Positions 2,303 through 61,928 of a stretch of 64,000 bases of DNA are shown one piece after another (positions within the stretch are counted from its first letter, which is position 1; each line of letters begins with the position of its first letter). Source of the stretch: Escherichia coli (GTDB lineage: Bacteria > Pseudomonadota > Gammaproteobacteria > Enterobacterales > Enterobacteriaceae); assembly GCF_009931435.1 (NCBI RefSeq), contig NZ_CP043415.1. One strand, 5' to 3'. The notes beneath the pieces are model-generated. The model was not told where the DNA came from, made no database searches, and saw only the letters and a list, made by a program, of their open reading frames with translations. The position numbers and the translations under genes are program-made.

Positions 2303-5300
2303 TCAGTCTCCGCCCAGGGTTTTCTCTTTCTGCAGGTCACGAACCATATCCCGCTCCATCTGCTGCAGTCGCTCCTGCAGCAGATTTTCCCGGGCAACCT
2401 CCCGGACCGCTTCCCGCACCCGTTGTGGTTCACGCAGTACACTCTCCGGCAGCGCGGCTTCCCGTTCAGATATGGCAGACCGGTCACGCTCCAGCCCGGC
2501 AATATCCCTGACAGCCTGCTCTGTTTTGCCGTCCGGCAGGTCAGGTTTGTTCTCTGCCATTTTACGGACAATTTCATCCGCACGGCGTTCCGTTTCACGG
2601 CGGATGGCCTCTTCAGCCTGCCGCTGTGCCAGTACCTCTGCCGTGACCGGTTCGCCATTTCCGGCTCCCGGCTGAACGCTGTTGTCCGGGATATCCCCCC
2701 ACACGCGACCACCGGTGATGGTACCGGGATTCCACGGACGACCTTCACCGGCGATTCTTACCACCACACCGCTGTCAGGATTATCACGGGCAATCCGGAC
2801 ACCATCCTGCATATTATCAGCCAGCAGGCTCTCTCCGTTACGGCTGCCCTGCAGGGCCACGAACTGCGCATCCCCGCTGCCTTTCACCCGGCCTTCACCA
2901 CTGAAGCCCCGCAGCCCGTTTCCGTCATCCGTGGTCAGCGGATTCAGCCAGATACCGGCGGACTTGCCGTTACGGTCAAAAGCCGGCAGTGCCACATACG
3001 GTTGCGGATATTTACGTCCCGGAGCAATAAACCGTGCAGGACTGTCTCCCCCGGCCAGCCCCGCCTGACGGAGAACGGCACGGCCTGCCGCCACGTCCCG
3101 CAGCTCCCGCGCCGTACTGAACAACCGCTCTGCATTCATGACCTCCCGGTCCGGTTTCGGCTCAAACACATCGTGGGCAGTTCCTTTCTGTACGGCATTG
3201 TTGATGGCATCCGTCCAGCCCTGACGGTTATCGGTGTACACCTGCACATGCTGCTTCATACGCGACAGGGCCACATAGGCTGACTCAAAGCCGGCCATCT
3301 GTTTCCGGTTACCTTCCGTGCCTTCAAGCGCAATGGCAAAGGTTTCACTTGCCCCCTGCGCACCGTGAGCGGTGATGGCATAGGCCAGGTCAATATGTTG
3401 CTCTGCCTGCTCCTGGCCGGGGCGAATCTCCCGGGTCTGCAGTCCGTCCGACAGCGTGACACTGTCACCGGAAACCGCTGTCACCGTCCAGACGCTGTTG
3501 GCCACATAACCGCGCTCCCGGTCACTCTTCGTGAAGCGCATCCGGTCACCGGTTCCCACCCGGATGGTGTCCGGAGTGTATAGTGTGACGCCTTCAGCCA
3601 CCGCCTCCCGGGGCGAAATCAGCCGCGTGTTACCTTCCGCATCCTCCAGGGTTATCAGCCCGTCATCCTTACTGATACCGGCAATCCGGTGATACACATT
3701 ATCCACCAGGGCAAGTGCGTCCCGATGTGTCTCCCAGGTGGAGAGACGACGCAACTCCCCGTCGCGTATATTCGCTGTGTTCAGGACAGGCACCATGACC
3801 TGCTCTTTTCCCAGCTCACCGGCCTTTTCCAGTGCATCATGAATCATGCTGTTCAGCACGCGCCGGTCCTCATTCAGGTGCGTAACAATCAGCGTCTGCT
3901 CCCGTGCTTCCGGTGTCCTGCCGGTATAGTCGCGGACAATGGCTTCATACAGTGTCATGGGGACATCCGGAAAAGCCTCGCCTTTCAGCATCGCTTTCTG
4001 CTGCGCTTCTGCCAGTTTCGCTTCCTGGCTGTGACTGAACTCCGTCACGGAGTGCTCCGGTGCCCATGCGCCCTCCAGACGTGGCACCTGAGACGGTTTC
4101 ACACTCTCAAGCCCGGACAGTGCCCTTTCCACATCCCGGTTAATCAGGCTGTATACCGCCTCCCGCAGTTCCGGCGTCTGACGCACAATCTCCTTCATGA
4201 TGGCCACATCGGCAGCACTGCGCGTCTGCTGGAGACGGAAAGGCTGACCGGGCGCGATGGCCTGCAGCTGGTCCGTGTCACCGCTGGCCACGGCACGACC
4301 ACCACCGGCCGCAATCAGGGCGTATGCCCGTGCCATGTCGGTATTGCCCACCATTGAGCTCTCATCGAGCAGGAACAGCGTGTTGCTGAAATCCGGCGTT
4401 TCTCCGCTGCGCTGCTGCAGCTGCGTGTCATGCAGAAAGGACGCCAGTGTCTGTGCATCCACGCCTGCGCTGCGCATCTCCCCGACCGCACGGTGCGTGG
4501 GCCCCAGCCCAACGACACGGGGACGCTCACTCTCCGGCAGCATGTTCACGGCTGACATCACCGCCCGGAACTGTGTGGTCTTACCCACCCCGGCATACCC
4601 CTGCACCACCGTGAAACGGTCGGACGTTTCCAGTATCATGCGGGTGGCGGCACGCTGTCCTGATGTCAGTTTCTCCATGAGTTCGCCAGGTACTCTCTCC
4701 ATCAGCGGCGTGACCGCCTCCTTACCCTCGAGAATATGGCGAAGAATGCTCTTTTCTGCCTCATACGACGCACGGGAAACCAGCAGGTCTGTGCCATAGC
4801 CTTTAGCCACATCCACATGCAGTAAATCACCCCGTTTTATCTGCGCATCGATTTCCCGCCCCAGTTCAGTAAAACTGGTTCCTTCTGCAGCAAACGACTT
4901 TGCCTCTGTCAGCAGGTCCACATGGCTGAAGGCCAGGTTTTTACTTTCCACCACCGGAAGGGCCAGATGAATGGCCTGCTGTGCCGGCGTGTGAAGTGCG
5001 GACTTCTGATGACTGATAGCCGTTTCCAGCGATGTCTCACCGGCACGCGCCTTTATCTGCTCAGAAACCACCGTAAAGGAGGGATGGCGGGCAAGTTTTT
5101 CCGCAGTACGGGTTTCATCCAGTGAGGAATACAGCCGGACATCACGACCGCTGCGGGCCAGACCGTTCAGGGTGGCGTTGTCCATTGCCATCTGTGTGAC
5201 GGAGGCAAAAACCTTCGCACTGTCGCTGACGGAATGCCCGGGCGTTTCCACCCAGCCGTTCTCCAGCTTCAGTGCCGTGAACGGTGAATCAGCCACAGGC

Positions 5301-7573
5301 AGGGTGGCCGGTTCAGCCCGCCCCGGCACAACAACCGTCATCGCATCTTCACTGACGGATGCCACCTGCAGGCGGTCACCGCCGGAGACGCGGAGTCCGG
5401 GAATTTTCCCTGTCACCCTCAGTCGCTCGCCGTCTGCCACCGGCATTTTTTCCGGCCGGAACAGCGACCAGCTGCTGTCCAGGGAGGAAATACGCACCAC
5501 CTGCGTTTCACCCTGCGCATCCCGCAGGGTCAGGCTGTGACTCTGCGCCGTCACCCGGTCGATAACATAGCGGTCATGACTGCGTGTCTCCGGGTTCCAC
5601 TGCTCCATCACCATCCCCGGACGGTACATATCCCGCAGATAACGGCTCCGGCTGTCCAGCCAGACCGGTGACAGGGCGGTCATGGTTACCTCCGGGTGTC
5701 CGAGCACGCCCTGTGTTTTCAGCTCACTGCGAATGGCCTGTGTCAGTATGGCCTGTTCCCGTACCCCGCTGACCTGTGCCACGCTCTCTTCTCCGGCTTT
5801 CACGCTGACCGCAAAATCTCCTGCCAGCCGGGCATAGCGGACATTACGGTCCGGTTCACTGATGATGGTGGCCGGTCGCTGTTCTCCCCCCTGCCAGCGA
5901 TATGTGTTCACCCCGGCATCCTTCATGGCCATCAGTGCACTGCCTGTACCGGTTCGCTGCCCGCTGTCGGTTATCAGGACCTGTACGTTATGACGTGCAG
6001 CACCGTCCAGCAGGGTTAACGTCTCTTTCAGGGAGAGTTTTTCGCCCTGGTCAACGATAACAGTACTGCCCGGCGTGAAGGCCATGCCTTCCAGCAGCTG
6101 ACGACGTCCGGTTATCAGCTCACCGGACAACCGTTCATCCTGCTTCAGGTTCATCTGCGAGCGACGGTCAGCAGCGATAATCTGCACCTCCCGCCCCTGC
6201 TCCCGGGCCATCATGACCAGTTCAGCCACCCGCTCACGCTGCCCGGCTGCACCGCCCTGCCCGGACACAATGGCCAGCGACGGACGGTCCTGTGCCAGAA
6301 CACTGACCGCATCGCTGTAACCAGCCGTCCGGGGGACACTTTTCTCCGGATGTACGGTCACCCGGTTCTGTTTCATGATGTCACGACTGAGTGCCCGGAC
6401 TGACAGCTCATCGAGCACATGAATCCCGGACGTGAACAGCCCCTTCTCACGATCGAGGGGGATAAGCTGCTCACGGCTGATGGCCTCATCGATACCGGCG
6501 CGTGCCCGTTCAATCACACCATTTTCCGGCGGCAGTATGCCGACCGTTCTGGCCAGCACGTCCGTGTACGTAAACTGCACTTTTCGTTCACTTAATCCGG
6601 CAATGGCCTGTGTCACCGCCTGCTGCACATCCGGCCCCTCCTGTGAAACAGCCCCGGGCGCCTGCGTGCGGGTCTCCGCACGCTGATCCGCCGCGTCACG
6701 ATATGCCCGGATGTCGAACCCGGTTTCCTTCAGCGTCTGCATCCATTCAGCCATTCTGACTTCAGGATCGACGTGCTGTTTGGATTTTCGCGTATCCAGT
6801 GCCGCCACATCCCGGGATTTCAGCGAGGCATCTTCCCCGACGGCCTCCCGGATTGCCTGTGAGCGTCCGGAAAAGGCCTCCACCGGTACGCCCGGCATTT
6901 CCCACATACCGTGCTTACCCACCACTTCGGTTTCATAGCCCAGCGCCTCAACCTGCTCTTTCAGTTTTTCCCGGTAGAGCCTGCCAAAGGCAATCTGATT
7001 AGCGTACACATTCTCAATGAACCCCGTTTTCCCCACTTTGTCACTGCTCAGTGTCTTCCATTCGCCGTTATGCTGCGTGACATTAGCCACCACCGCATGC
7101 GTGTGTAACTGTGGTTCCTGATCGCGACTGGTGTCGTGGTTAAACAGTGCCATCACCAGATTACCGGTCAGCACCGTTTCTGACTGTCCGTCCGTCATCA
7201 CCCGTGTGGAGGCCAGCGCCTCCACCTGACGAACAGCAAAGTCCACGGCCTGGTTATGTGCATCAATCAGGCGCTTATCGCCACCTAACATGGCCATCAT
7301 GGAGACACTTTTGGGGGCGGAGAAGGTCAGGTCGTAGCCGGGACGATGCCTGTTACTGCCATCCTGCATGCGGCTTAGATCCGCTCCGTCCGGCAGCCTT
7401 CCCTCCAGAAGACGGGTAAAAACATCCTTATCGACACTGCCCTGCAGTCCCAGCTGTTCAGCCCCCCTGCCGGCCCAGCGTTCTCCCATGCTGCCCAGCA
7501 CATAGTAATTATCCTTGTCGGTATAATAGTTCCCGGCACTGCCGGCCGATCTGACCTGCGCGATACTCATCAT
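2303..7573 (-). CDS. traI: TraI relaxase/helicase, 1756 aa
   Basis: N-terminus [26 protein letters not shown] with tandem catalytic Tyr pairs, HTHAVVANV His motif, Walker A GYAGVGKTT; length equals F TraI. Confidence 0.97.
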   Translation of the reverse strand: MMSIAQVRSAGSAGNYYTDKDNYYVLGSMGERWAGRGAEQLGLQGSVDKDVFTRLLEGRLPDGADLSRMQDGSNRHRPGYDLTFSAPKSVSMMAMLGGDKRLIDAHNQAVDFAVRQVEALASTRVMTDGQSETVLTGNLVMALFNHDTSRDQEPQLHTHAVVANVTQHNGEWKTLSSDKVGKTGFIENVYANQIAFGRLYREKLKEQVEALGYETEVVGKHGMWEMPGVPVEAFSGRSQAIREAVGEDASLKSRDVAALDTRKSKQHVDPEVRMAEWMQTLKETGFDIRAYRDAADQRAETRTQAPGAVSQEGPDVQQAVTQAIAGLSERKVQFTYTDVLARTVGILPPENGVIERARAGIDEAISREQLIPLDREKGLFTSGIHVLDELSVRALSRDIMKQNRVTVHPEKSVPRTAGYSDAVSVLAQDRPSLAIVSGQGGAAGQRERVAELVMMAREQGREVQIIAADRRSQMNLKQDERLSGELITGRRQLLEGMAFTPGSTVIVDQGEKLSLKETLTLLDGAARHNVQVLITDSGQRTGTGSALMAMKDAGVNTYRWQGGEQRPATIISEPDRNVRYARLAGDFAVSVKAGEESVAQVSGVREQAILTQAIRSELKTQGVLGHPEVTMTALSPVWLDSRSRYLRDMYRPGMVMEQWNPETRSHDRYVIDRVTAQSHSLTLRDAQGETQVVRISSLDSSWSLFRPEKMPVADGERLRVTGKIPGLRVSGGDRLQVASVSEDAMTVVVPGRAEPATLPVADSPFTALKLENGWVETPGHSVSDSAKVFASVTQMAMDNATLNGLARSGRDVRLYSSLDETRTAEKLARHPSFTVVSEQIKARAGETSLETAISHQKSALHTPAQQAIHLALPVVESKNLAFSHVDLLTEAKSFAAEGTSFTELGREIDAQIKRGDLLHVDVAKGYGTDLLVSRASYEAEKSILRHILEGKEAVTPLMERVPGELMEKLTSGQRAATRMILETSDRFTVVQGYAGVGKTTQFRAVMSAVNMLPESERPRVVGLGPTHRAVGEMRSAGVDAQTLASFLHDTQLQQRSGETPDFSNTLFLLDESSMVGNTDMARAYALIAAGGGRAVASGDTDQLQAIAPGQPFRLQQTRSAADVAIMKEIVRQTPELREAVYSLINRDVERALSGLESVKPSQVPRLEGAWAPEHSVTEFSHSQEAKLAEAQQKAMLKGEAFPDVPMTLYEAIVRDYTGRTPEAREQTLIVTHLNEDRRVLNSMIHDALEKAGELGKEQVMVPVLNTANIRDGELRRLSTWETHRDALALVDNVYHRIAGISKDDGLITLEDAEGNTRLISPREAVAEGVTLYTPDTIRVGTGDRMRFTKSDRERGYVANSVWTVTAVSGDSVTLSDGLQTREIRPGQEQAEQHIDLAYAITAHGAQGASETFAIALEGTEGNRKQMAGFESAYVALSRMKQHVQVYTDNRQGWTDAINNAVQKGTAHDVFEPKPDREVMNAERLFSTARELRDVAAGRAVLRQAGLAGGDSPARFIAPGRKYPQPYVALPAFDRNGKSAGIWLNPLTTDDGNGLRGFSGEGRVKGSGDAQFVALQGSRNGESLLADNMQDGVRIARDNPDSGVVVRIAGEGRPWNPGTITGGRVWGDIPDNSVQPGAGNGEPVTAEVLAQRQAEEAIRRETERRADEIVRKMAENKPDLPDGKTEQAVRDIAGLERDRSAISEREAALPESVLREPQRVREAVREVARENLLQERLQQMERDMVRDLQKEKTLGGD

Positions 7574-9771
7574 CAGAAATCATCTCCCGGCTCAACATCC
7601 TCCCCGCGCTCCCGGTGCACATTAATGTTCACCTCTTCACGACGCTGCATCTGCTGCTGGATGTCCGGATGATTTTCCTGTTGCCATGCCTCATAAGCGG
7701 CCATATCCACCACTTCACCGGATTCACTGATCCCGGGTGGCAGTTGCTGTTCCATCTCTTCTTCCGGTTTCATTTTCAGCTCCTGCTCGATCCCCCCTGC
7801 CGGAACATTCACACCTGAATCTGACTTCTTATCGTTGATGGCAGGAGACATCGGCTGTTGCGGCTGTTGCGGCTGTTGCGGCTGTTGCGGCTGTTGCGGC
7901 TGTTGCGGCTGTTCAGCCTGAGTCACGTCTTCTCCGGAAACAACTTCCGGCACATCCGGTTCGAAGAGGCTGGCCATCTGACGACCTTCTGCTTCCCTTG
8001 CGGCAAGTACGGCGCTCAGGCGGTTCTCCATTTCCGGGTTGATGTCACGCGGAATAAACTCAGGGGCAACCTTCGGACGTGCCTGATATTTCAGTGAGAG
8101 TTTTACTGCCGGATACGGTCCGGGCAGGGTGACATAACAGGTCAAATCCGGCAGAGACTGAATGTCGGAATAACTGACCAGCGTCTGGCGCTCCATATCC
8201 TTACCGGTCGATACCCCGTCACGTACCGGATCAGCACCGTAGGAGTACTGCTCGCTGGCTTTCAGGTGCTCTTTCTCACCAATCTCACCGGCAGCGAACT
8301 CTGCAATCTTATGGCTGGGAGAACGGAAAAAGGCACGGGTGTTCATGACGTCAAACAGCGTGGCAGCCGCTTTCTCACCGTAGATATCTTCCAGCTGGGC
8401 ATAGGACTGGATACCAAACACATAACAGCCACCGAACTTACGGGCTTCCGGCAGGATCTCCACCAGGTCCGGCAGTTTGTGTAACGTGGGTAGCTCATCA
8501 CAGAAAAACCACACACGACGGTTACGGTTTTCTCCCATTGCCAGCAGACCACGAATGGCAATGGACAGCCACATGGAGATCACCGGCTTCAGGGAGGCAT
8601 GGGTGTCGGCATTCGACGAGATAAACAGCCAGCCGTTTTTCTGATCTTCCCGGACACCCCGCATCCAGTCACGGATGGTAAAAGACTCACCGTTATGCTC
8701 AATCCCCTGCAGGTAACGGATGGCTTTCACGTAGTTGGTCAGCACAGCACGGATGGAAATCGCCGTTTTCTCAATTTTCTCTTCCACCAGGTTGGCCGCC
8801 GGTGAATTACGCAGGAAGGTACGCAGTTTTTCGATTTTGATGGAAAGCAGTGTGTCCACCAGTTTGCTGTAGCTACGGTTGGGGTCATTACGCATCAGGT
8901 ACGCCGCTTCCGCAAAAATGGTACGTCCTGAACCCTGCCAGAACGGGTCCTCTTTTGTGCCCATCGGGATCAGGGTATTTGCCGTATTATCAAAATCCGG
9001 CTGTGTCAGACACTCCTTCCATAAATCCCAGGCGGCACAGCGGGCATCCAGCGGATTCAGGATTTTATCGATGGAGGGATCATAGTAACTTTTAACAAAT
9101 TCCCCCGAACGGTCATAAATCACCACCATATCACCGCGCTGACGGGCGTAGTTGGCCAGACGACGGATAACTTCCGACTTACCGGCCCCGACCGTGCCGT
9201 GCAGACAGAAGTTCTGGATTTCGGAATCCCGGATAATCGGCAGGTCTCCAATCCGGATATCGGAGTCCTTGCCGTCTTTTTTCAGCATCCGGGCAACGTC
9301 TTTCGGATTGTCTGTCAGCTGACGACCACCTGTGGCTTCATTTTCGCTCTGTTGTTTACCCTGACGCCCCAGAATCCAGGAGACAACAAAGAAGGTAATC
9401 AGGCAAATAACCAGTGCCACAACAGCAGCCAGCACGAAGGCGGACCATAACTGCTCACTGCACCAGATCATATATTTGTCATGCAGTACCTGAGCAGCGT
9501 TCATGCGGAAGGTTTTACCGTAATACTGGATCTCATAGACCGGCTGGGATTTGATTAAATCCCGCATGCCTTCCAGCGTGGTACACCACCAGTAAATACA
9601 GCCGTTCACAAACGTCTGCCAGCTTATTTTTATCCATAAAACCAGACCAACGAGTATCCAGAAAAAAATAAACAGGCAGTAAAGCATGATATTGGCGATC
9701 TGGCTGAACATGCGGATACGCATGGACGCAATCTGACCGCCCTGGGTCATATCCTTTGCGTTAAAACTCAT
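7573..9771 (-). CDS. traD: TraD type IV coupling protein
   Basis: 732 aa, N-terminal TM segments, Walker [10 protein letters not shown]-terminal (QQP)n tract and acidic tail ...EDVEPGDDF. Confidence 0.97.
7852..7905. repeat. 9-bp tandem repeat (CGGCTGTTG)x6 encoding the TraD QQP tract
   Basis: Six perfect tandem copies read directly in the sequence. Confidence 0.9.
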
Positions 9772-10023: not shown

Positions 10024-10758
10024 TCAGAGAATATTTGCGATTGATTTGGCCAGCTGGTCTTCGAGAACAGGCTTCGCCTCTTCAAATTTCAGGTTAACCT
10101 TGTTCGCATTTGAGACCACACGGGTCTGGTATTTATGCTGGTTACCTGTTTCTGTACTGGTCTGAATTTTCGCACCTGATGTGCCCTGACGCAGGGCGGC
10201 AACATTATCCGTTGTCACCGTTGCCTTAGTACGCTCTGCAATCTGCACATCCGTGATCATGGTATAGTTCACATCTTCCACCATCGCATCTGCAGCCATA
10301 CCCACCAGACCGGCAGCAAGGCCCACACCGAGTGTGGCACCGGCAGAATTGGAATTATATCCGGTGATACCGGCACCTAACGCTGCACCAACTGCTGCGC
10401 CTTCATAACCACGGTTCAGCCATCCCTGAGACTCCCGCAGATCCATCTTATCGGCCTTCAGCACATTCGCCTGAATCCAGTAGTAGGCTTTATCCGGAGA
10501 AGTCACCACCTGATACCCTTTTGCTTTCACAGCATCAGCAATTTTGCCCTGCAGCCCACTCATGTCTTTATCAGACGTGTTTTTGATCTGCAGAAATACC
10601 GTGCGTTCGCTGGCGGGTTCAAGCCAGATGGTCTCACTCATCTGAGTCTTCACCTCAAGGTTACGCTTCTTGATTGCTGTGCTCATCGCACCACACCCTG
10701 AAAGGGCCAGAGTGGAACTGACCAGTGCAACCATCATTAGTTTTTTTGTTTTCATCAT
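10024..10758 (-). CDS. traT: TraT surface-exclusion outer-membrane lipoprotein
   Basis: 244 aa; lipobox LALSGC; sequence matches TraT as remembered. Confidence 0.95.
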
Positions 10759-32644: not shown

Positions 32645-33028
32645 TTATTCATCATCATTTTTTGGAAAGAACCTTTCCATCTCAACCGACACCTTCTCTC
32701 TGATATCTTCAACCATATTGGCATATTCAAACTTCGGTTTTCCGGAAACATGAGGGCTAAGAGACTCAATACCTAAAATCTTTGCCACCGTTGACTGCGT
32801 TTTTACAACACACTCAAGAAGAAGTTTATTAAACTCTGCCTGATTAAACGCTGATTCTTTTCGTTCCATCTGCGCTTCATAAACTCGCAATCCTAACTCA
32901 AGCAACATAGAGGCAATACTTGAATAACTAACATCTTTCTCTTTTGCTCCCTCTGCTCGCCTTTGCACAGCAATAGCATTTATTTTTTCAGACACATGGT
33001 CATTAACATAAACCTGAATTTTGGCCAT
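32645..33028 (-). CDS. traM: TraM relaxosome accessory protein
   Basis: 127 aa MAKIQVYVNDHVSEKINAIAVQRR...; adjacent to oriT. Confidence 0.93.
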   Translation of the reverse strand: MAKIQVYVNDHVSEKINAIAVQRRAEGAKEKDVSYSSIASMLLELGLRVYEAQMERKESAFNQAEFNKLLLECVVKTQSTVAKILGIESLSPHVSGKPKFEYANMVEDIREKVSVEMERFFPKNDDE

Positions 33029-51707: not shown

Positions 51708-54096
51708 ACGATCGGGTAGCAGTGATGCATTACTGCATCACCGCCCCCTAAGAACCGTACGTGCCAGTTTCCCGGCATACGGCTCAAGCCTTTCTAAGCC
51801 CACTCTCATGAGCCGGTTTCACTACATGTATACCTTTCGCATGAACAAGTGTGTGACACATCGGATGCAGCATAATCAAATTGGAGAGGCAGTTGCTCCC
51901 TCCATCGACTCGCCGTATGATGTGATGAACCTGCCACTGGGAATCAGATGTAATCCTCTCATCACATATGGGGCATCGGCCCCGCTGCTCAAACCAGATT
52001 TGAATGAGCTTTTTCCGTCCTTGCAGTTTGTGCCGCATTTTGTCTGCACAACGCTCCTCAAAGTACATCTCCCATTGAGGATCGAACGGATTAGCTGCAA
52101 TTTTAATCGGTTTAAACCGGTTGATAGGCGTATCGATTGCTTTCCTCAGATTTGCATACTGAGGCTTACCGTTGGCAAGGAGTTCTCCGGTAGCCGTGGA
52201 GAAAGACCAGTTTCGGGCACCTTGTTGATGGAAATATCTTTTCCGAATCCACTTCTTTCCCTTATTGGGATGACGCCGAACAGCCCAACGCCATAAAGCC
52301 AGCCAGATCTCATTGTCAACTTTGTTAAATGCGACCTTGGCCACAATGTGTTGATGGTAAGCCGCCCACCCTTTGATCATTGGGTTCAGCATGCGGATCA
52401 ACGTAAGCTGATCCATAGCTTTGTTGCCTTTGATTACAGCGCGTATTTTCTTTAAAAAGGAACTGACATTGGCTTTAGAGGGTTTGATCAGCATCTTACC
52501 GCCATATTTGCGAATGTTCTGTCCAAGAAAATCAAATCCTTCCTCGATATGTGTGATTTTCGTCTTTTCCGGAGAAAGCATTAATCCTCTTTCAGCCATA
52601 AACCGCCTGACGACGGGTAATACCTGAGACTCAAGAAGTTCTTTTGACTCTCCAGTGATAATAAAATCATCAGCATATCTCACATAGTTAACTTTCGGGT
52701 TAACCAATCGTCCCTTGACTGTTCTCTTTTTAAACTCCGAAGCAAGAAGCGCCTCCAGTCCATCCAGAGCAATGTTAGCCAGTACAGGAGAAATTATTCC
52801 CCCCTGAGGAGTTCCTGAATTTACAGGGAATAACTGCCCCTTTTCCCTGTAACCCGCTTTAAGCCACTTTGTCAGGATTTGTCTGTCTGTTGAGGTGTTA
52901 TCGATTAGCCATTGATGAGATATATTGTCAAAGCATCCCCGTATATCCCCCTCAAGCACCCATTCAGCGGATGTTTTCTGCGCAAGAACACAGAAGCACT
53001 GTGCTATCGCATCTGCAGTAGACCTTCCAGTCCGAAAGCCGAAGGATCTCTGGTCAGCAGTGACTTCAGCAACGGGCTCAAGAGCCAGCAAATACAACGC
53101 CTGCATCGCCCGATCCTTCATAGTGGGTATCCCAAGGGGACGAGACTTCCCATTTGACTTAGGTATATAAACCCGCTTAAGTGGCTGTGGTTTGTAACCA
53201 CGCCGTTTCAGCAGGTTAATAGCAAGAAATTTAACCTCCGGGGAAGACCATGTCTGACCATCAACCCCAGGAGTACGTTTCCCGCTATTCTCTGTAACTC
53301 GTCTGACAGCAACTGCTCTGCCACTAAACGAGTGAGTCAGTATCCATTGCAAGGATTTGACCTTGCCATGTTTACCTTCTCGTGTTGCCTTTACGATACG
53401 CGCTTGCAGTCTCCGCACTTCCCGATAGCACTGACGCCAGTTGATACTGTGCCAGGAGTCACCGTTAAGTAAGGACGCACCTTTACAGGTTGTAGCCTGC
53501 TCAGTCATCTGCTTTTCCTTTCTGGAAGATTACTCAAACTCTCTCGTAATGAAAGACCCAGTGGAAGTCTGCCCGCTTTCGCGTAGGGTAATGTTGCCGG
53601 GCTCAACCCTTATCCGGTCCATTACAGACTGGCATTCGCTTTTTCCACCTTCTTTTACCCGCACCGCCAACAGTATCCCTTGCGGTTAACCTGCCTCACG
53701 AGGCAGCGATACGGGCTTACCATGTTCCACCTGAATAACAACAGTAGGTTAGACTCTGCTCACAACACCGGTGGTTTATTGTCCGTGTACCCCTAGCAAA
53801 CAGAGGAGTAACCAACCACATACCTTTTGGTTCAAGCCTGTCAGCATCTTTGGCTTGTTCTGGTTAACGACGCTTCAGCAGTTCACATATGTTAGTCATG
53901 CTACCGAGCCTAGACCTCCTCCGCCTGATGCTGGCAGATTACATGTAACCTCACGGTTTCATGCGATCCGAAGATCCGGTTTCATTGTCCTGACAGCTTC
54001 ACACCCCACCGTTACCAGTGACGCATGTGTCAGTAGGCTACTGATGACGGAACATCAGGTTCCCTGACGGAATCGAACTCCGCTGGAACAATTATT
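51708..54096 (-). mobile_element. Group II intron (3' boundary approximate)
   Basis: 5' end GTGCGAC (complement of 54096-54090); domain V GAGCCGTATGCCGGGAAACTGGCACGTACGGTTC at 51752-51785; internal RT ORF. Confidence 0.8.
51784..53508 (-). CDS. Group II intron-encoded reverse transcriptase/maturase with C-terminal HNH endonuclease
   Basis: 574 aa; YADD motif; maturase region; HH...C..C HNH-like C-terminus. Confidence 0.95.
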   Translation of the reverse strand: MTEQATTCKGASLLNGDSWHSINWRQCYREVRRLQARIVKATREGKHGKVKSLQWILTHSFSGRAVAVRRVTENSGKRTPGVDGQTWSSPEVKFLAINLLKRRGYKPQPLKRVYIPKSNGKSRPLGIPTMKDRAMQALYLLALEPVAEVTADQRSFGFRTGRSTADAIAQCFCVLAQKTSAEWVLEGDIRGCFDNISHQWLIDNTSTDRQILTKWLKAGYREKGQLFPVNSGTPQGGIISPVLANIALDGLEALLASEFKKRTVKGRLVNPKVNYVRYADDFIITGESKELLESQVLPVVRRFMAERGLMLSPEKTKITHIEEGFDFLGQNIRKYGGKMLIKPSKANVSSFLKKIRAVIKGNKAMDQLTLIRMLNPMIKGWAAYHQHIVAKVAFNKVDNEIWLALWRWAVRRHPNKGKKWIRKRYFHQQGARNWSFSTATGELLANGKPQYANLRKAIDTPINRFKPIKIAANPFDPQWEMYFEERCADKMRHKLQGRKKLIQIWFEQRGRCPICDERITSDSQWQVHHIIRRVDGGSNCLSNLIMLHPMCHTLVHAKGIHVVKPAHESGLRKA

Positions 54097-60714: not shown

Positions 60715-61041
60715 ATGACTAAAAATACTCGTTTTTCCCCCGAAGTCCGTCAACGCGCAGTTCGTATGGTTCTGGAAAGTCAGGGCGAATATGACTCACA
60801 GTGGGCGGCAATTTGTTCCATTGCCCCAAAGATTGGCTGTACGCCGGAGACTCTGCGTGTCTGGGTTCGCCAGCATGAGCGGGATACCGGGGGCGGTGAT
60901 GGTGGGCTCACCAGCGCTGAACGTCAGCGTCTGAAAGAGCTGGAACGTGAAAATCGTGAACTGCGCTGCAGTAACGATATCCTTCGCCAGGCTTCCGCTT
61001 ATTTTGCGAAGGCGGAGTTCGACCGCCTCTGGAAAAAATGA
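60715..61041 (+). CDS. IS629 OrfA
   Basis: 108 aa [26 protein letters not shown]... Confidence 0.95.
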
Positions 61042-61928
61042 TGCCACTGCTGGATAAGCTGCGTGAGCAGTACGGGGTCAGACCGGTATGCAGCGAACTG
61101 CATATTGCCCCGTCAACGTATTACCATTGTCAGCAACAGCGACATCATCCGGATAAACGCAGTGCCCGTGCGCAGCACGATGACTGGCTGAAGAAAGAGA
61201 TACAGCGCGTATACGATGAAAATCACCAGGTATACGGTGTGCGTAAAGTCTGGCGTCAGTTGTTACGGGAAGGTATCAGAGTGGCCAGATGCACTGTGGC
61301 ACGTCTCATGGCAGTTATGGGACTTGCCGGTGTTCTCCGGGGTAAAAAGGTCCGCACTACCGTCAGCCGGAAAGCCGTTGCCGCATGCGACCGCGTAAAC
61401 CGTCAGTTCGTGGCAGAACGTCCAGACCAGTTGTGGGTGGCTGATTTTACCTGGGTAAGCACATGGCAGGGCTTCGTTTATGTGGCGTTCATCATTGATG
61501 TGTTCGCCGGATACATCGTGGGATGGCAGGTCTCATCATCCATGGAAACAACATTCGTGCTGGATGCACTGGAGCAGGCGTTGTGGGCCCGTCGGCCGTC
61601 CGGCACAATCCATCACAGTGATAAAGGTTCTCAGTATGTATCGCTGGCCTACACGCAGCGGCTTAAGGAAGCCGGATTACTGGCATCAACAGGGAGTACT
61701 GGCGACTCGTATGACAACGCGATGGCGGAGAGCATCAATGGTCTTTACAAAGCGGAGGTAATACACCGTAAGAGCTGGAAAAACCGGACAGAAGTGGAAC
61801 TGGCCACACTAACGTGGGTGGACTGGTATAACAATCGACGATTGCTGGGAAGGCTGGGCCATACTCCTCCGGCAGAAGCAGAAAAAGCTTATTATGCTTC
61901 CATCGGAAACAATGATCTGGCAGCCTGA
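61038..61928 (+). CDS. IS629 OrfB (DDE transposase catalytic part)
   Basis: 296 aa integrase-core ORF overlapping orfA. Confidence 0.95.

Follow-up and report, generated by a model that had tools for sequence, protein, structure and literature searches.

Coding minisatellites, or variable-number tandem repeats (VNTRs), whose unit is a multiple of 3 nt alter the length of low-complexity protein linkers. In the coupling protein TraD of F-like plasmids, Lang et al. (2011, Mol Microbiol 82:1071; PMC3245843, Fig. 8) described a "QQP motif" that is variable in length, comprising 5 residues in F (QPQQP) and 23 residues in R1, and that lies upstream of the TraM interaction domain. Theirs is the only mention of the motif in the searchable literature, and its length was not tested there. 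TrwB of R388 (PDB 1e9r/1gki), the archetype of the type IV coupling proteins, has a nucleotide-binding core homologous to that of TraD but offers no counterpart to TraD's 159-residue acidic extension with its QQP tract and TraM-binding tail. This C-terminal extension has been described as unstructured (PMC3245843; PMC10939261). By the title of Beranek et al. 2004, as cited in PMC3245843, the 38 C-terminal residues of R1 TraD are required and sufficient for TraM binding; for F TraD, it is the last ~8 residues that bind the tetramerization domain of TraM (PMC3159463; PMC10939261). The contact between TraM and the TraD tail is weak, and both avidity and tail flexibility have been invoked (PMC3159463). 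Loss of the last 15 TraD residues attenuates transfer (PMC10939261).

Here we analyzed a 64,000-nt stretch of an Escherichia coli contig (NZ_CP043415.1), hereafter the window, in which TraD carries a tract of the form QP(QQP)n between its NTP-binding domain and its TraM interaction domain, and in which the length of this tract differs from that of relatives. This is the same feature that Lang et al. described in 2011, an ordinary and known part of a known protein, and its 20 residues in the window fall between the lengths of F and R1. The F protein (NC_002483, WP_000009350.1, 717 aa) shows the same domain order, and its last 38 residues are identical to those of the window; its single QQP unit, compared with six in the window, makes up the whole 15-residue length difference. 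At the DNA level the array resembles coding VNTRs in its identical units, in whole-unit gain and loss with the frame kept, and in its high allelic diversity: units are identical even at synonymous positions, and whole-unit differences occur on near-identical backgrounds. Unlike phase-variable contingency loci, which have units of 1, 2, 4 or 5 nt, the QQP array cannot switch its gene off.

The array and its setting in traD

The array lies in a 732-aa ORF whose product matches three Pfam families: TraD_N, the N-terminal membrane domain of F-type TraD (residues 32 to 128, E = 1e-34), TrwB_AAD_bind (residues 172 to 561, E = 4e-117) and TraG-D_C. The product also matches TrwB in the PDB over residues 161 to 573 (E = 3e-47) and has a Walker A motif, GTVGAGKS, at residue 192. 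When the 3' 828 bases were queried, they showed ~98% DNA identity to F-plasmid traD, and the C-terminal protein segment is nearly identical to that of F TraD. All close plasmid matches annotate the counterpart of this ORF as traD. The gene and the other tra genes to which we refer below are as follows.

7573..9771, minus strand: traD, encoding a 732-aa type IV coupling protein (ORF, Pfam, TrwB match; the end includes the stop codon)
2303..7573, minus strand: traI, encoding a 1756-aa relaxase/helicase, directly downstream of traD (ORF; Pfam TrwC, TraI_2B, AAA_30, TraI_C)
10024..10758: traT, flanking traD on the side opposite traI (ORF and Pfam)
32645..33028, minus strand: traM, encoding a relaxosome protein, a 127-aa ORF (translation; counterpart annotated traM in plasmid pUTAK-5-1)

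The traD stop overlaps the traI start at 7573, and the gene order traT, traD, traI, read from ORFs, Pfam and the annotation of pUTAK-5-1, is that of an F-type tra operon. Over the stretch that holds the traM counterpart, pUTAK-5-1 is 99.997% identical to the window. Several E. coli plasmids of the IncFIA/FIB/FIC types that carry an entire F-type tra operon match the first 25 kb of the window at 100.0% identity, and Rfam places FinP, the traJ 5' UTR, AS-traI and AS-traG where they are expected. Taken together, the domains, the flanking traT and traI, the near-identical annotated plasmids and the Rfam elements identify the gene, on sequence grounds, as traD of an F-like conjugative plasmid with a complete IncF tra operon.

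Both the raw sequence read-out and Tandem Repeats Finder (TRF) placed a perfect array within traD, consisting of CGGCTGTTG repeated 6.9 times with no mismatch and no indel (TRF: period 9, 6.9 copies, 100% matches, score 124, consensus CGGCTGTTG). It is the top-scoring tandem array of the 64-kb window and is far beyond chance, as ~1e-27 perfect period-9 runs of this length would be expected in 64 kb of the window's base composition.

7852..7913, minus strand: 9-bp tandem array of 6.9 perfect units, CGGCTGTTG on the plus strand (TRF, sequence, codon read-out)
7852..7911, minus strand: QP(QQP)6 tract of 20 residues, TraD residues 621 to 640 (codon-by-codon read-out, residue mapping)

The original prediction, made from the letters of the DNA, had named the gene TraD and placed (QQP)6 at 7852-7905. 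Its gene assignment agrees with the evidence above, and the frame in which it read the units is also correct, since the reverse complement of the unit, CAA-CAG-CCG, reads Q Q P in frame with the 732-aa ORF. The six perfect units it counted occupy 7852..7905, as it had proposed; its end coordinate fell short, because the period-9 tract runs 8 more nt (CGGCTGTT) to 7913 and encodes QP(QQP)6.

Directly after the tract, the window, pMRY16-002_1 and both plasmids with near-identical backbones have Met (ATG) at residue 641 (7849..7851), where F and the remaining examined alleles have Val (GTG). The sequence upstream of this ATG is the repeat itself and holds no Shine-Dalgarno-like sequence, so that an internal start at Met641 seems unlikely.

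Another perfect tandem array of the window, (CAGTAG)x9, lies in the leading region of the plasmid at 43530..43583 (43530..43586 by TRF). It directly follows a ~645-bp segment that is present twice (35515-36144 and 42885-43529, ~96% identical) and is length-polymorphic, since pUTAK-5-1 has 5 units at the same place compared with 9 in the window. Only small hypothetical ORFs, with poly-Leu and (TA)n readings, overlap this array, and the 187-aa ORF just upstream of it is the counterpart of a SAM-dependent methyltransferase annotated in pUTAK-5-1. Approximately 1.95 kb at 38829..40780 are absent from pUTAK-5-1; this segment shows a 7-bp flank overlap, a possible target-site duplication, and has two plus-strand ORFs of 340 aa (rve integrase core and HTH) and 260 aa (IstB_IS21, E = 1e-111). 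By these features it is an IS21-family insertion that splits a ParB-like gene of the leading region into 38045..38863 and 40727..42022. Rfam matches in 51711..54059 (minus) and 60996..61112 (plus) comprise group II intron domains (RF00029, RF02012) and the ALIL pseudoknot, a frameshift element of IS3-family transposases, and indicate more mobile elements in the distal window.

Length variation across F-like traD alleles

To ask how far the number of units differs among F-like traD alleles, a comparison that had been suggested together with the statement that copy number may vary between plasmids, we used two nucleotide queries. The 828-nt query found matches in at least 5,000 plasmid records; with a 561-nt query there were 3,212 matching records, spread over 2,802 of the 5,426 complete E. 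coli genomes. Direct counts in 22 fetched alleles gave 0, 0, 1, 1, 1, 3, 3, 4, 4, 4, 5, 6, 7, 8, 8, 9, 10, 10, 13, 16, 17 and 26 units, so the expected variation is borne out over a range of 0 to 26. The regular form QP(QQP)n held in all 23 alleles examined (the 22 fetched alleles and the window), and the tract of the F plasmid, counted in the same direct way, is QPQQP. One allele (L004) has no QQP unit at all; its traD is annotated as intact, the adjoining traI is intact, and the plasmid that carries them is typed as conjugative.

Counting had begun from match spans in BLAST tables. These naive counts were one unit too low in R100-like alleles, owing to a 9-nt indel elsewhere in the gene, and were replaced by direct counting in the 22 fetched alleles.

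7951..7959, minus strand: PDV codons, residues 605 to 607, the site of a 9-nt indel 13 residues upstream of the tract (allele alignment)

F/R1-like alleles have the PDV codons and CCG units, and R100-like alleles lack PDV and have CCA units. The wider distribution was taken from 59 of the 3,212 matching E. coli RefSeq records, a non-random sample spaced evenly by BLAST rank. In all 59, the full-length match span differed from the query by a multiple of 9 nt, and after correction for PDV the counts ran from 0 to 26 units with a mode of 1 and a median of ~5, which places the six units of the window in mid-range; for 4 of the 59, PDV status was inferred and the count carries an uncertainty of +/-1 unit. 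Metagenome and genome contig collections were left out of this comparison, because their short-read assemblies would be biased against long arrays. A protein-database search with the C-terminal 203 residues was likewise kept out of the length distribution, as it returned mostly short fragments biased to few repeats, and served only to view the tract position in distant F-like TraDs.

We considered assembly artefact as a general cause of the length differences and rejected it: the alleles always differ in length by a multiple of 9 nt, such differences recur in data from many laboratories and platforms, and F and R1 have long been published with different lengths. Some single counts in public assemblies could be assembly errors.

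The array changes length on backgrounds that are otherwise almost unchanged. The window and pUTAK-5-1 differ by 2 substitutions in the 24,940 nt outside the array, yet carry 6 and 10 units, respectively; the window and pSTEC2018_607-c also differ by 2 substitutions outside the array, yet carry 6 and 7. A single TraI protein, WP_000948354.1 (1756 aa), adjoins arrays of 16, 17, 9 and 3 units, and another, WP_106486826.1, adjoins arrays of 13 and 3. The synonymous proline codon is uniform within arrays and specific to lineage, being CCG in F/R1-like and CCA in R100-like alleles. Because units are identical even at this synonymous position, their homogeneity points to gain and loss of units at the DNA level, rather than to selection on the amino acid sequence alone.

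Two alleles contain units of both types. The first, L005 (NZ_CP147061.1), has the longest array seen, with 26 units (80 residues), in which CCA occurs 23 times and then CCG 4 times; the second, L015 (NZ_CP053298.1), has 4 units, with CCA 3 times and then CCG 2 times. Both have an R100-type flank on the N-terminal side and an F-type flank on the C-terminal side, and the unit type switches in the matching order. Since the switch of unit type coincides with the switch of flank lineage, L005 and L015 look to be mosaic traD genes in which a crossover between lineages took place within the array.

The tract within the TraD tail

The tract starts 47 residues past the end of the TrwB-like core (residue 573) and ends 92 residues before the C terminus. 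The segments of the protein around it are as follows.

7576..8052, minus strand: C-terminal extension beyond the TrwB-like core, residues 574 to 732 (the TrwB structure match stops at 573; composition)
7768..7947, minus strand: predicted unstructured segment, residues 609 to 668, containing the QQP tract (AlphaFold2, alignment A1)
7576..7689, minus strand: TraM-binding tail as mapped in the literature, the last 38 residues, 695 to 732, ending DVEPGDDF (identical to F TraD)

The 159-residue extension is acidic, with a net charge of -21, and rich in Q, P and E. To view its conservation, we aligned the last 203 residues of TraD with 31 homologues, down to ~46% identity (alignment A1). Three zones can be told apart in it. 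The end of the core is conserved; next comes a low-complexity, Pro-rich spacer that lacks conservation and whose length, roughly 20 to 110 residues, varies with lineage; beyond it stands a conserved distal block (GGxEQEL...LPPG...) followed by an acidic tail. The QQP tract lies entirely inside the hypervariable Pro-rich spacer. At the corresponding point, more distant F-like TraDs, of the Klebsiella, Enterobacter, Serratia and Salmonella types, carry no more than QP, QPQQ or QPQQPQ. AlphaFold2, run on these 32 sequences only, gave residues 609 to 668 a pLDDT of 36 to 40 without secondary structure, low pLDDT being a mere proxy for disorder, and predicted confident helices at 579 to 602 and 690 to 717 on either side.

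These results bear on a further claim of the original prediction, that the repeat lies in a tail region that interacts with the relaxosome. The claim is correct for the entire C-terminal extension; the mapped TraM contact, however, starts at least 55 residues downstream of the tract. The repeat is thus inside the arm that docks the relaxosome, yet outside the mapped TraM contact site in the last 8 to 38 residues. Given that this contact maps elsewhere and that the segment is non-conserved and predicted to be unstructured, the tract is most likely a spacer rather than a contact site.

We put the probability at roughly 80% for a joint explanation in which traD contains an in-frame minisatellite of hypermutable length and the tract encoded by this array is a flexible spacer. 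Identical DNA units would allow replication slippage and unequal or inter-allelic homologous recombination to add or remove whole units, and with a 9-nt unit TraD would gain or lose 3 residues per step while the frame is kept. From the pattern of units we infer that slippage is the main mutational process. In the protein, QP(QQP)n would sit in the unstructured acidic extension, between the membrane-anchored hexameric ATPase core and the distal block with the TraM-binding tail, and the TraM bound by that tail would sit on oriT. The tract would then be a flexible spacer in a tether, its length under weak constraint and probably near neutral, and not a binding site.

The very high turnover, and the fact that long arrays persist in perfectly homogeneous form, would be compatible with selection on length as well. 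Under such an alternative, array length would be subject to diversifying or fluctuating selection and would set the reach or stiffness of the TraD tether, thereby modulating the efficiency of conjugation or relaxosome docking, discrimination between cognate and non-cognate relaxosomes or plasmids, or susceptibility to pilus-specific RNA phages, and hypermutability of the array would enable plasmids to try out new lengths rapidly. The very fast turnover on near-identical backbones and the broad range of 0 to 26 units are in keeping with this, as are the perfectly homogeneous arrays, which imply that arrays have kept expanding and contracting in the recent past. Lang et al. (2011, PMC3245843) speculated that variation in the TraD C terminus, including QQP length, may underlie the difference in R17 sensitivity between F and R1, and that phage resistance may have driven the diversification of type IV coupling proteins. 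However, a high mutation rate alone explains the diversity, and alleles of 0 or 1 unit are common and present on plasmids typed conjugative. In other F-like lineages, moreover, the spacer consists of unrelated sequence, roughly 20 to 110 residues long, which suggests a broad tolerance of length, and we found no test of QQP length against phenotype in the searchable literature. We therefore regard selection on length as unlikely and prefer a hypermutable minisatellite that encodes a spacer.

Pro-rich repeats are common peptide-recognition motifs, and the QQP repeats might themselves contact TraM, TraI or another component of the relaxosome, with more repeats providing more sites. The tract does lie in a C-terminal extension that is implicated overall in substrate and relaxosome binding (PMC10939261). 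Such a role is nonetheless very improbable, given that TraM binding maps well downstream of the tract, that the tract is not conserved among F-like TraDs while the distal block is, that the QQP unit occurs just once in F and is missing from some alleles that seem intact, and that the segment is without predicted structure. Least probable of all is an element acting at the level of DNA or RNA within traD (a regulatory RNA structure, an antisense transcript, an internal promoter or a protein-binding iteron), for although Rfam antisense RNAs such as AS-traI and AS-traG occur elsewhere in the tra operon, there are alleles without any full unit, the mRNA of the array region folded no better than shuffled sequence (z = 0.01), promoter- and terminator-like sites showed no excess at the array, no Rfam match fell on the array, and no plus-strand ORF of at least 80 aa ran across it.

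Implications for IncF plasmids

To the description of the QQP motif by Lang et al., our comparison adds the range of 0 to 26 units, the differences between near-identical backbones, the homogeneity of codons within arrays and the recombination junctions inside them. The array probably changes faster than any other site of the tra region that was compared (the first 25 kb of the window). As it differs between plasmids that are near-identical over 25 kb, it could serve as a fine-scale marker in the epidemiology of IncF plasmids.

The repeat may also complicate the assembly of traD from short reads, or its polishing. The protein search turned up several TraD fragments that are partial or look frameshifted, among them "TraD" fragments (P0013, P0018/P0019 and P0037) in which the array is read in another frame or is entered from unrelated sequence. 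These look like copies that were frameshifted or misassembled at the array, a hint that the repeat may trouble assembly.

Whether the length of the tether matters is a question that Lang et al. raised (PMC3245843), and no paper answering it was found in the searchable literature. The natural allele series of 0 to 26 units is suited to asking if the tether length of a type IV coupling protein affects relaxosome recruitment or the entry of RNA phages.
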